A stretch of DNA of 37,006 nucleotides from Promethearchaeota archaeon (GCA_048938855.1 JBHLLT010000030.1:1-37006); one strand, 5' to 3'; shown: positions 5,529 to 26,642, counted from the stretch's first letter. Notes: a model not told the origin generated them from the letters alone. Numbers and translations are program-made.

Positions 5529-6065
5529 TTATTCTGATTGAGCTGCATAATAGATCAGCCATTTTGCCATAGCTTGAAATGATTCGACGATATTAATATT
5601 ATCTTTGGACGAACAGAATACACATTGATTACATTTTGCTTTCAAAGCATAATCATTAGCTACATCATAATCTACCTCATGGTTCTGAAGATCCCATTTC
5701 ATACCGAGCAGAATTATAGGAATAAAACCAGCTTTTTGACGTATTATTTTTAACCATTCAGGTATTTCTCTAAAAGTATCATAATCACTAATATCAAAAC
5801 ATATAAATGCACCACTAGCTCCTTTACAATAATCCGGTAGCAATTCACGAAATCGTTTTTCGCCTGCAAAATCCCAAAGTTGCATTTTTACAGCTTCACC
5901 ACTATCTAATGTTTCAGATTTAGTATGAAATCCGGCACCTATTGTCATCTTATACCCTTCTTCGAATTTACCTGTGCAATACCGAGTGATCATAGCAGTT
6001 TTTCCTACACCTCCAGCACCAGCAATAATTACCTTAAAAATCCATGAGCTCTGCATTTTTATCAA
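5529..6065 (-). CDS. Rab/Ras-superfamily small GTPase
   Basis: G1 GAGGVGKT, G2 YKMTIG, G3 WDFAGE, G4 MKWD, G5 CSSK; no C-terminal prenylation cysteines. Confidence 0.92.
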   Translation of the reverse strand: MIKMQSSWIFKVIIAGAGGVGKTAMITRYCTGKFEEGYKMTIGAGFHTKSETLDSGEAVKMQLWDFAGEKRFRELLPDYCKGASGAFICFDISDYDTFREIPEWLKIIRQKAGFIPIILLGMKWDLQNHEVDYDVANDYALKAKCNQCVFCSSKDNINIVESFQAMAKWLIYYAAQSE

Positions 6066-6352
6066 TCATATAAATATTCTGACATAAAGAATAAGCTTAT
6101 TGATAAATAATAAAAATTTTGCTTTAAATACTTTTTTGGTTCAGAATTCATTATCAAATTTTTACAACCAAGATCTGAAATCTTAAACAATCTGAAAAAA
6201 AGTGGTTGATTAATAAATCACAATAAATGAATTTGAAATATTTTATCAAAGTGTTTCTGTGAAATGAAAAAGATTTTTATAAGATTTTATTCTATTATTT
6301 TTTAGATTTAAATTTTAAAAAGTTTAAATATTAAAGGTTGTGATAAAAGAGT

Positions 6353-6670
6353 ATTAAAGACGACGACATTTGTCCTATATGTAGTTTTCCAAAAGAACTA
6401 TGTATATGCGATAGCTTAAGTGCGGATGAGCAACAAATAGTAATCTCTAATGATACGAGGAAATGGGGGAGGGTTGTTACCGTCGTTAAATTTATCGGTA
6501 ATTTCGATGTAAACCTAAAAAATATACTGACAAAAGCAAAAAAAAAATGCGCTTCTGGGGGAACAGTTAGGGATAATGAGGTTGAGCTACAAGGGGATCA
6601 TCGGTTTAAAATGAAAAAATTCTTAATTGATCTAGGATTCCCTGAAGAAAATATTCTTATTCAAGAATGA
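6353..6670 (+). CDS. aif1: Translation initiation factor aIF1 (SUI1); no canonical start, probable ATT start
   Basis: Not in the ORF track; translated by hand: (I)KDDDICPICSFPKELCIC...RKWGRVVTVV...KKKCASGGTV...VELQGDHR...LIDLGF...; TGA 6668-6670. In-frame TAA at 6344-6346 bounds the frame, and no ATG/GTG/TTG precedes the Cys motif. Confidence 0.9.
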   Translation: MKDDDICPICSFPKELCICDSLSADEQQIVISNDTRKWGRVVTVVKFIGNFDVNLKNILTKAKKKCASGGTVRDNEVELQGDHRFKMKKFLIDLGFPEENILIQE

Positions 6671-6763: not shown

Positions 6764-7201
6764 ATGAATTCAGTTATTTATAAAGTAATTTTCAGGGCAC
6801 TTGAACAATTTGAAAATAGAAATCTTACTTTGAGTTTTAAAAATTTAGAATTTAGCACCCCGATATCTCTTCCTAATAAATTCCGAGAATTTAGAGAGAT
6901 GAGTGTAAATACTGATCATGTCATGAGTTTCCAAAATATTGAAGAAGTTCTTATAATTGGAAACCCATCCGTAGAATATTCTTACAATTATTTCCTTGTT
7001 ATACTATACACATTTAAGGCAGATGGGAAAGAGAATGGATTTTTAATTGGTAATGTGAAAAATCTAGGGGATGTTATCATTGGTGTATGGCCATTCAATA
7101 AGGAGCTTAATAATATAACTAAAGATAATGTATTAAATTCATTTAAAGATATTATAGAAAATCCTGATAAATTTAGTAGTATTTGCCTAATTTCTCAATA
7201 A
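6764..7201 (+). CDS. Hypothetical protein
   Basis: 145-aa ORF filling the gap between aIF1 and RPA; no recognised motif. Confidence 0.6.
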   Translation: MNSVIYKVIFRALEQFENRNLTLSFKNLEFSTPISLPNKFREFREMSVNTDHVMSFQNIEEVLIIGNPSVEYSYNYFLVILYTFKADGKENGFLIGNVKNLGDVIIGVWPFNKELNNITKDNVLNSFKDIIENPDKFSSICLISQ

Positions 7202-7217
7202 GGAAGAACTTTATAAA

Positions 7218-8942
7218 TTATATCTTAATTTCCTGCATTACTCTTTCTAATTCCTCATCAATATTAATATCTTTATAATCATATACAATTATCTCATATT
7301 GATTTGAAAAATCACTAAATTTAGCTCTGCCCCTAATAATAATATCTTTTCCTAGAAACTCAGACGATTTTTTTTCAAGAAATCTCTCAAATTCAGGAGT
7401 CTCCCGAAGTTGTACAATATTATTGGTTTCTAGTCCAATTAATTTCTCTGCTAAATCTCCAATGAAAGTACACCTAATAGTTCCAGTTCCATCATCAATG
7501 ATCAGGTTTAAAATCATACGATATTCAGAATCTTCCGTTTTTTCGCAAGTACAATTTTCAATTTTCTTCATGCAATTTTTACATGCTTCATACAAAGTTA
7601 TTTTATTGAGATCTTTTGCAATAAATCCTTTTATTTCAATTGTACCGGGTGTATTAATCGAATCGATTTTAATATAATTACCAGAAAAGTTAGATTGTCT
7701 CTGTTTTTCAGATGCTTCAATATTTTTTAAGTTATTAATCTCTAGATCAATCAACTCCAAGGATGAATCGTTCAATAAAGAAATTTCATTTCTGCTTGAA
7801 AAATTACTATATTTTACTAATACATTCTTCAAAGATAATCCTTGTCCAACAGTCAACTGTTTTGAATATTCTTCTGCTTGCTCACGCCAGAGCGTGATTC
7901 TAATACCATCTGTATTATCACTAACTACAAATCCTAATAAAGAAACTTGGTCTCCAATTTTTAAAGATATTGACTTTAAATTATCTACTGAAGTTATAAT
8001 TCCTCTAAATGACACTATACCACTCTTTTTCTGAAGTTGTTTTATACTTTTTACAGAATCTCCTTTTATATCTAAATCTCCAGTCTTTTTAGCTATTTCT
8101 GTGTTTTTATTGGCTGTAAGCTCAATAGTTTTCGAATCTAAAGCGCTTAATCTAGGATTTAGGTTAGAAATTGATATTACATCATTAACTTCCAATTTCT
8201 TTATTTTTTCAGTATCTTCATTCCAAAATGTAATTCTGGTAGAACCTGTTGAATCTAATAATATTAAGGATTGAACGTATCCTAATTCGCCATCCTTACG
8301 AGTGAATTCTCTTTTTGGGGAAAGCTGAATGATTTTACCTTCTATTGATAAAGAATTAAGATTTAAGTTTATATCACTAATTTTAATTGATTTGAAAGTA
8401 ATTTTAGGGTATTTTTTGTAATCTATATCTTCTGGTGATATAATCACTTTACCATAACTTCCCACATGGATCTCCATATTTCCATACTTCCCTTTTTTTG
8501 CATTTCCGTTAATAATTTTAATTAATTCATTTTTTTCAAAATTTGGTTCAGTAAAAATATTTACTTGATTATCCCAAAGCACAATACGAGCATCTCCAGT
8601 GTTATCATTCAATAAAAAAGAACCAACATATCCTTTAGTGCCATCATTTCTTTCAAAACTATTAACATTATAAATTTCTTTGATCCTCCCATATAATGTA
8701 ATATTTTTCATATTTTGAGTAATATCTGATATAAAAATCTCAATTTCTTTTAATAAATCCTTATTTTCTCCTTTAATATCAACTCCTAACTCTTTTGCAA
8801 TAATAAATAATGCACCCTCATCAGAAATTAGTCCTTTTAATTCACTCTTCTTTTCTTCAACTAAATTCTGTATTTCTTTCCTTGTTAAACCTGTGTCCTC
8901 GATAATTTTATTGATATAAACTTCAGTTTTCATTTCAATCAC
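7218..8942 (-). CDS. rpa: Replication protein A large subunit (multiple OB folds plus Zn finger)
   Basis: GLISDEGALFIIAKELGV N-terminus; repeated DxTG/DxTD...ITxW OB motifs; YEACKNCMKK...CTC; IIDDGTGTIRCTF. Confidence 0.9.
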   Translation of the reverse strand: MIEMKTEVYINKIIEDTGLTRKEIQNLVEEKKSELKGLISDEGALFIIAKELGVDIKGENKDLLKEIEIFISDITQNMKNITLYGRIKEIYNVNSFERNDGTKGYVGSFLLNDNTGDARIVLWDNQVNIFTEPNFEKNELIKIINGNAKKGKYGNMEIHVGSYGKVIISPEDIDYKKYPKITFKSIKISDINLNLNSLSIEGKIIQLSPKREFTRKDGELGYVQSLILLDSTGSTRITFWNEDTEKIKKLEVNDVISISNLNPRLSALDSKTIELTANKNTEIAKKTGDLDIKGDSVKSIKQLQKKSGIVSFRGIITSVDNLKSISLKIGDQVSLLGFVVSDNTDGIRITLWREQAEEYSKQLTVGQGLSLKNVLVKYSNFSSRNEISLLNDSSLELIDLEINNLKNIEASEKQRQSNFSGNYIKIDSINTPGTIEIKGFIAKDLNKITLYEACKNCMKKIENCTCEKTEDSEYRMILNLIIDDGTGTIRCTFIGDLAEKLIGLETNNIVQLRETPEFERFLEKKSSEFLGKDIIIRGRAKFSDFSNQYEIIVYDYKDINIDEELERVMQEIKI

Positions 8943-26228: not shown

Positions 26229-26642
26229 TTATTTTTCTTTAATTTCTTCTCTTGCTCCACACGCTGTACATTTTAAATAGAGTTTTTTAGCCTCTCTTTG
26301 AAATTGAGTATCAGGTTTATTACAAATTTTACATAGAACGTAGGTTTTCGTATAATTTTCAATCAGTCGATTTAATACCTGTTCTTTATATTGTCCTTTC
26401 AAGAATAATTGTTGACCTCTAATCTCTCCCATAGTTCCTGCCTTTTTTAGAAAAATCCCAATAAAATGTTTCCTTTCTCTATTAAGAGTGCTAATAATTT
26501 TATTAAAATTAGTTATAAATGTATTTCTGCTTTCAATTCGAATTTCGACCTTAGGTATTTCAAATCTTGAAGATTTTTTTACATTATCAGGAATCTTTTC
26601 ATAAGCTTTATCCAATAATTCTTCGTAATTATTTAAGTCCAT
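26229..26642 (-). CDS. Translation initiation factor aIF2 beta
   Basis: YEELLDKAY, RFEIP, T.ITNF, YVLCKICNKPDT, LKCTACGA. Confidence 0.95.
   Translation of the reverse strand: MDLNNYEELLDKAYEKIPDNVKKSSRFEIPKVEIRIESRNTFITNFNKIISTLNRERKHFIGIFLKKAGTMGEIRGQQLFLKGQYKEQVLNRLIENYTKTYVLCKICNKPDTQFQREAKKLYLKCTACGAREEIKEK

Follow-up and report, generated by a model that had tools for sequence, protein, structure and literature searches.

A candidate AUU start codon on the aIF1 gene of a Promethearchaeota archaeon and its possible role in feedback control

We propose that the aIF1 gene of a Loki-type Asgard archaeon (Promethearchaeota) is functional, that its translation begins at a Shine–Dalgarno (SD)-led AUU codon and that this weak start has been selected for feedback, an explanation to which, taken as a whole, we assign a probability of about 0.5. 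The gene lies in the window, by which we mean the whole stretch of 37,006 nucleotides that was analysed, on contig C31 of a MAG of 3.95 Mb (30% G+C, ~97% complete). Among archaea, the Asgard group stands closest to eukaryotes, and the aIF1 case would place a eukaryote-type factor under a bacteria-type signal in that very group, and would thus bear on the evolution of initiation stringency control.

The aIF1 gene and its start site

Positions 6347-6667 (plus strand) form a stop-free frame of 107 residues, the translation of which contains a CPIC...CIC motif followed by the SUI1 domain. Two stops, TGA at 6341-6343 and TAA at 6344-6346, close this frame upstream, and after them it reads AAG AGT ATT AAA GAC GAC GAC ATT TGT CCT. 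The observation of the earlier note that no ATG, GTG or TTG lies between the in-frame stop at 6344-6346 and the Cys motif was confirmed in the sequence. The first such codon in frame is ATG 6611, codon 88 of 107, and for this reason the canonical-start ORF listing of the window contains no ORF at the aIF1 locus. The features of the locus are as follows.

6353-6670, plus strand: aIF1/SUI1 CDS, 105 codons and a TGA stop at 6668-6670 (PF01253, NF002096)
6341-6346, plus strand: two in-frame stops, TGA TAA, directly 5' of aIF1; the TGA belongs to the SD
6371-6409, plus strand: N-terminal Cys motif C-P-I-C...C-I-C, residues 7, 10, 17 and 19, from the translation
6353-6355, plus strand: ATT, proposed AUU initiation codon, from conservation, SD spacing, profile and NCBI proteins
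6335-6344, plus strand: SD-like element AGGTTGTGAT, 8/10 match to the consensus AGGAGGTGAT
6266-6282, plus strand: candidate BRE/TATA promoter (AAAAAG + ATTTTTATAA), a conserved block 71-80 nt before the start
6340-6357, plus strand: out-of-frame mini-ORF GTG ATA AAA GAG TAT TAA, judged a by-product

The frame is an intact aIF1/SUI1 gene, as first supposed: PF01253 matches at 6428-6643 with 66.7 bits (cut-off 25.5), and NF002096 scores 115 bits (cut-off 98), with residues 4-103, counted from ATT 6353, covering profile positions 2-101 of 102. It is the sole SUI1 match in the 97%-complete genome and hence single copy; a second, ATG-initiated aIF1 was sought in this genome and none was found. The Cys motif is of the archaeal type, CxxC...CxC (C7, C10, C17, C19), and almost all of the Asgard and DPANN orthologues that were read retain it. 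Within the genus the protein is 85-99% identical, and the 21 orthologues differ from the window genome by 690 synonymous versus 154 nonsynonymous codon changes, indicating strong purifying selection. The gene is therefore a functional, single-copy aIF1 of essential type, and its product is predicted, by homology only, to be a start-codon fidelity factor.

Translation of this gene very probably starts at the near-cognate AUU at 6353, as judged from comparative sequence evidence. The element GGTTGTGA occupies 6336-6343 and ATT 6353 comes 9 nt later, and the coordinates first given for this ATT and for the out-of-frame mini-ORF proved correct. The two mismatches of AGGTTGTGAT to the consensus AGGAGGTGAT are central and are themselves conserved, and the 16S 3' end of the genome reads GGATCACCTCCT, which is complementary to AGG..GTGAT of aIF1. 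In 2,382 long ORFs of this genome, GTGAT peaks 3-8 nt and GGAGG 7-12 nt before the first canonical start, and SD-guided initiation is used by this genome. The GTGAT of aIF1 (6340-6344) ends 8 nt before ATT 6353, inside the 3-8 nt range of the canonical genes but 3 nt longer than the sharp 5-nt peak of the other near-cognate starts, a departure that counts against our reading. Downstream of ATT, the codons AAA GAC GAC GAC change among genus orthologues only synonymously or between Asp and Glu, indicating that they are translated, and upstream of AGT two species carry an extra stop (TAA TAG), indicating that no start lies there. The NF002096 alignment begins at residue 4 counted from ATT 6353, and NCBI annotation of several relatives gives 105-aa aIF1 proteins beginning MKDDDICP, which corresponds to a start at this ATT; in those relatives the start has already been placed and is not new. 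The earlier claim that standard gene callers miss or truncate aIF1 thus stood in part: some give products of 84, 76, 70 or 65 aa, but NCBI gives the 105-aa MKDDDICP protein.

Three other in-frame codons that differ from AUG by a single mismatch could in principle serve instead, namely AAG 6347, ATT 6368 (just before the first Cys) and ATA 6377. The first position, however, varies among AAG, GAG, GAA, GAC and even TAG; ATT 6368 lies 23 nt from the SD and varies between ATT, ATA and ATC like an ordinary Ile codon; and the K-D-D-D codons at 6356-6367 behave as translated sequence, with synonymous and D/E changes. We give a start at any of the three hardly any probability.

The AAAAAG/ATTTTTATAA block emerges as a consensus when 76 unique family 5' regions are lined up by their start codons, and it also lies upstream in genus g19 loci. 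A promoter role for 6266-6282, with a transcript start that would leave a leader of ~50 nt, is suggested by this conservation and position. The fold of 6320-6420 was no better than that of shuffled sequences (z = -1.08), and a 13-bp hairpin at 6376-6410 (plus strand), within the Cys-motif codons, gave no consensus structure across 74 family sequences. No initiator tRNA, special or otherwise, was identified among the 24 tRNAs found with aragorn or the 30 found with RF00005; the single CAU tRNA (C71), with its G1-C72 acceptor end, is elongator-like. Two differing 16S 3' ends occur in the genome (G000, C18 and C40), with identical anti-SD and different flanks, and could represent two rRNA operons or the 7% contamination.

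Around aIF1, the 5' neighbour is a divergently transcribed small GTPase (window 5529-6065, minus strand, TIGR00231, TTG start). On the 3' side, a 145-aa ORF without family match (6764-7201, plus strand), which also lies 3' of aIF1 in a relative (L115), is followed by a gene for a replication factor A-like protein with several OB folds (7218-8942, minus strand, GTG start).

Conservation of the start in the genus and the family

All 21 readable orthologues of the genus (one further orthologue, masked by N, was not counted) keep AAAGGTTGTGATAA, a variable codon, AGY and then ATT AAA GAC GAC. The variable codon, at the position of 6347, is AAG, GAG, GAA, GAC or, in two species, TAG. Two findings that would have overturned the near-cognate start, an ATG at 6347 and a 1-nt indel placing GTG 6340 in frame, were both sought in the genus; the ATG is absent from the orthologues and no such indel exists. 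The first ATT is the same in every one of them (21/21), while none of the 10 other Ile codons is constant, each varying among ATT, ATA and ATC or changing residue.

In the family, aIF1 is present in 102 of 121 genomes, and 40 loci from about 10-11 further genera were read. No canonical in-frame codon lies between the stop and the Cys motif in 31 of the 40, and ATG occurs there in none (0/40). The shared layout begins with an SD-like block (in most cases GGTTGTGA, in some GGAGGTGA or AAGGAAGGAA), which is followed by a spacer and ATT, then AAR or AGY and GAN. Among 76 unique family sequences the start codon is ATT in 72, ATC in 3 and ATA in 1, with ATC in three species of one genus and ATA at a few loci, and the proposed ATT start thus withstood the conservation check in both genus and family. 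The most conserved upstream block is AGGTTGTGAT or AGGTTGTGAA, present in 65/76; the spacer after GTGA measures 9 nt in 70/76 and comes in 36 different sequences, indicating that conservation is limited to its length. The same plan was seen in 55 of 56 close relatives taken from public MAGs (53 ATT, 2 ATC), the last being cut by a contig end. Exceptions, with GTG either in frame inside the SD or at the start position, were seen in L047, L058-61, L065 and L068. Judged from these alignments, aIF1 almost certainly begins at this weak AUU, which is kept across more than 100 related species.

If only one MAG were considered, in which nothing but the canonical start is missing, one would suspect a mistake in assembly or sequencing, or else a pseudogene in decay. 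The identical architecture recurs, however, in more than 100 independent assemblies, and the gene is single copy, essential in type and under strong purifying selection. Sequencing error, private mutation and pseudogene are ruled out by the orthologues together with this selection, and we leave them practically no probability.

The earlier note had also suggested that the mini-ORF, or a +1 shift from it, acts as the device, and the comparison spoke against this. Two versions were weighed: a start at GTG 6340 or TTG 6338 followed by a programmed +1 shift, and termination at the end of the mini-ORF with reinitiation at AUU. In 65 of 76 family sequences the GTG mini-ORF is open up to a TAA that overlaps ATT, an 8-nt spacer puts GTG in frame in a few genera (L047, L065), and TTG-TGG is in frame in some metagenome lineages. 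Yet GTG and TTG are both part of the SD, and neither is served by a separate one; neither peptide nor shift site is conserved across the 36 distinct spacers; the ATC species have no overlapping stop, their frame running to +29, and the stop comes early in 2 sequences; UAU-UAA-A would probably be unworkable as a +1 slip site for tRNA-Tyr; and other Asgard families have ATA or CTG on aIF1 and no such mini-ORF. Moreover, the GTG is the SD core and the TAA arises from ATT-AAA, and for this reason we regard the mini-ORF as a by-product and either version as very unlikely.

The bacterial prfB gene (RF2) is autoregulated by a programmed +1 frameshift. Like prfB, aIF1 encodes a translation factor and has a stop in frame close to its 5' end, with an SD a short way upstream; unlike prfB, it has no conserved shift site, and its stop lies 5' of the coding region rather than interrupting it, and the parallel was rejected.

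The SD also contains an in-frame TTG-TGA 'start-stop' (window 6338-6343, plus strand), in which AAAGG abuts TTG and leaves no SD spacing available. In some metagenome lineages this TGA is TGG, and callers then start at TTG, giving MWKK[ST]IKD (P0012, P0014).

Near-cognate starts in other genes and in other Asgard families

We searched the genome for long ORFs, delimited from stop to stop, whose first 50 codons include no canonical codon and which are unshadowed by other genes. Among the 29 ORFs obtained, about 13 are seemingly real, and those confirmed by Pfam are uS10, eL34, eS26, pterin-4a-carbinolamine dehydratase, a cytidylyltransferase-like protein and an MGMT DNA-binding-domain protein. 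In each Pfam-confirmed ORF an SD is followed after 4-8 nt by ATT, ATA or CTG where homologues have Met. The three ribosomal protein genes, which have no canonical start (set L196-L198), are the following.

G000 C70:173540-173848, minus strand: uS10, ATA start
G000 C49:50822-51106, plus strand: eL34, ATT start
G000 C49:212709-212990, minus strand: eS26, ATT start

Four further loci of G000 (L199-L201 and L204, respectively) encode the pterin-4a-carbinolamine dehydratase (C54:69032-69379, plus strand, ATT), the cytidylyltransferase-like protein (C34:111608-112054, plus strand, ATT), the MGMT DNA-binding-domain protein (C34:327689-328066, minus strand, ATT) and a RING/zinc-ribbon-like protein (C41:4925-5278, plus strand), the CTG start of which stands behind TAGGTGAT. 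At G000 C64:6139-6688 (plus strand, 0-based ORF coordinates) an in-frame TGA precedes an HdrA-like ORF; the genome has a tRNA-Sec(TCA) according to aragorn, and this TGA is probably a selenocysteine codon, not a sign of a missing start.

An orphan-SD test was also applied to this genome, using SD matches of at least 5 nt close to the 5' end of an ORF where a canonical in-frame start is lacking in the vicinity. Of the 55 in-frame codons lying exactly 5 nt away, 40 were near-cognate (ATT 23, ATA 9, ATC 4, ACG 3, CTG 1), whereas ATT occurred 1-5 times at control distances. Looser filters were swamped by in-coding noise, and the signal became clear after splitting by distance and frame under stricter filters. 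By our estimate, ATT, ATA and ATC start several dozen genes here, ribosomal proteins included; annotation limited to ATG, GTG and TTG would truncate or miss these as well as aIF1. AUU and AUA are genuine start codons in this lineage, because they alternate with ATG, GTG and TTG at the Met position of uS10, eL34 and eS26 orthologues.

These findings raise the possibility that the AUU of aIF1 has no sensing role and reflects a relaxed or expanded start repertoire, being either a means to a constitutive modest rate or a frozen accident. Dozens of genes here, uS10, eL34 and eS26 among them, use ATT or ATA behind an SD, such starts are already accepted by table-11 annotation, and no conserved regulatory RNA structure surrounds the aIF1 start. 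We regard this as quite possible, at rather less than even odds. A merely tolerated codon should, however, turn over on aIF1 as it does on the three ribosomal protein genes, and we compared these genes in 30 genomes of 11 family genera. AUH stands at the start of aIF1 in 30/30 genomes, of uS10 in 12/25, of eL34 in 5/29 and of eS26 in 14/28, all counts ignoring kinship; for aIF1, 27 of the 30 genomes have no canonical alternative and ATG never occurs (0/30). The Met-position codon of uS10 in 25 family genomes is ATA in 11, ATT in 1, ATG in 3, GTG in 6, TTG in 2 and another codon in 2; that of eL34 in 29 genomes is ATT in 5, ATG in 16, TTG in 5, GTG in 1 and GTT in 1, with ATT, ATG and GTT all present inside the genus; and that of eS26 at 28 loci is ATT in 12, ATA in 2, ACG in 1, ATG in 8, TTG in 4 and GTG in 1. 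By this comparison the near-cognate codon turns over freely in the three control genes and is frozen on aIF1. The ACG of eS26 is found in one genus of the Loki-type family (L281, G049). Pterin-4a-carbinolamine dehydratase was dropped as a fourth control gene, being present in only 3 of the 30 family genomes.

Beyond the family, we surveyed 60 further Asgard loci from 26 families. A canonical codon before the aIF1 Cys motif is missing from thirteen loci in seven families (f5, f7, f9, f12, f14, f19, f20), and likewise from two loci of genus g5 (family f2). These 13 + 2 loci have ATA or CTG, ~9 nt after AGGAG/GGAGG or 3 nt after GGTGAT. Several of the Asgard families surveyed have GTG or TTG on aIF1, and roughly 40% have ATG. 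In the 15 genomes with ATA or CTG on aIF1, uS10 is canonical in 14/15 and eS26 in 14/14, and in 15 genomes where aIF1 begins with ATG the two genes are canonical throughout, suggesting that outside the Loki-type family the weak start belongs to aIF1 and not to the genome, at least as judged by these two control genes. This pattern, too, stands against a start without sensing role. In the DPANN control phylum, reached through a Woesearchaeota locus, aIF1 has ATG in 22 of 24 Cys-motif loci, with one GTG and one unclear case. In f12 and f9, two Asgard families richer in GC, aIF1 apparently starts at CTG (L159, L161, L162, L151, L195), and genera related to these have GTG at the same position.

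The remaining initiation factors of this genome, aIF1A (two copies) and aIF2 alpha, beta and gamma, all use ATG, which again is not what a generally relaxed repertoire would predict; the gene for aIF2 beta lies in the window (26250-26585, minus strand), ~20 kb from aIF1, and its ATG has no obvious SD. We consider that the weak start has probably been kept on aIF1 by selection, because AUH is frozen on aIF1 while other AUU/AUA genes swap to canonical codons.

Possible feedback and comparison with known systems

As to why such a start would be selected, an IF3-like negative feedback is in our opinion the best reading, although we hold it tentatively and somewhat short of even odds. Transcription from the AAAAAG/ATTTTTATAA block would yield the short leader. 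The 30S subunit would dock on the imperfect SD AGGTTGTGAT via the 16S 3' end, and initiator Met-tRNA would be placed on AUU 6353, 8 nt downstream of the SD, to give the 105-residue MKDDDICPIC... protein, two steps to which the comparative data lend support. The product would then destabilise initiation complexes on non-AUG codons and so oppose its own AUU: abundant aIF1 would lead to rejection of this codon and scarce aIF1 to its acceptance, so that the aIF1 level, and hence start-codon stringency, would be held at a set point. The same level would also tune dozens of other AUU/AUA-started genes in the family. Three weak features occur together on aIF1, namely the near-cognate codon, the SD with two central mismatches and the 8-nt spacing. 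The feedback idea is plausible, and it is strengthened by the frozen aIF1 codon and by the gene specificity in other Asgard families; it is a mechanism that we infer, because ATT and ATA start dozens of other genes here. AUU may not be especially weak in this lineage, and its aIF1 may discriminate against AUU poorly. A weak start on aIF1 is also not universal, given the plain ATG in ~40% of Asgard families.

The biochemical activity that feedback needs is found in the same protein family. According to the account in PMC4705826, the 30S complex of S. solfataricus binds an AUU mRNA only without aIF1, AUG being unaffected (Hasenohrl et al. 2009), a discrimination measured in a distant crenarchaeon. 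More generally, aIF1 is described as destabilising 30S complexes on AUU or erroneous complexes in vitro (Hasenohrl 2009 via PMC4705826; Monestier et al. 2018, PMC6237735). The S. solfataricus and P. abyssi proteins come, however, from Crenarchaeota and Euryarchaeota rather than Asgard archaea, and the searched text of the aIF1 biochemistry papers makes no mention of the start codon of the aIF1 gene. Our full-text literature search (including PMC6237735, PMC4705826 and PMC7531240) did not bring to light any description of an archaeal aIF1 gene that starts at a near-cognate codon, and no case of self-limiting fidelity-factor synthesis in archaea was found in that search, in an archaeal initiation review or in an aIF1 paper.

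Self-limitation of a fidelity factor through its own weak start is established in both bacteria and eukaryotes. Bacterial infC, encoding IF3, has an AUU start and is under translational autocontrol (Butler, Springer, Grunberg-Manago 1987, as cited in PMC4705826). As in infC, the start-codon fidelity gene itself begins at a conserved AUU behind an SD, and the expected logic is the same, less factor leading to more initiation at its own AUU. However, IF3 and aIF1 are unrelated proteins, and the autocontrol of infC was proven genetically, whereas feedback on aIF1 is proposed; dozens of other genes in this lineage, ribosomal proteins included, begin with AUU or AUA; and in other Asgard families aIF1 carries AUA or CUG rather than AUU. 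Eukaryotic eIF1 (SUI1) is autoregulated by means of an AUG whose Kozak context is poor (Ivanov, Loughran, Sachs, Atkins 2010, as cited in PMC4705826 and PMC6237735). It is the homologue of aIF1 (PF01253), and both genes have a suboptimal start site of their own. They differ in that the weakness of aIF1 resides in the codon (AUU) and initiation is SD-guided, not by scanning, and, with no in-frame AUG before codon 88, aIF1 lacks the poor-context AUG of eIF1.

A wider hypothesis would be that Asgard archaea set their stringency through near-cognate starts on aIF1 (AUU, AUA or CUG according to lineage), as an archaeal counterpart, and possibly a forerunner, of eIF1 autoregulation, with a co-controlled regulon of several dozen AUU/AUA-started genes (uS10, eL34 and eS26 among them) in the Loki-type family; in this full form we consider it rather unlikely.

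A second aIF1, with 62-66% identity, occurs in seven family genomes (for example, G060:C2:79568-79882 and G142:C133:10118-10432) and may be a paralogue or contamination, the host genomes having an estimated contamination of 4-9%. In the two copies examined (L070, L071), a perfect SD, GGAGGTGA, is followed after 8 nt by ATT or ATA.
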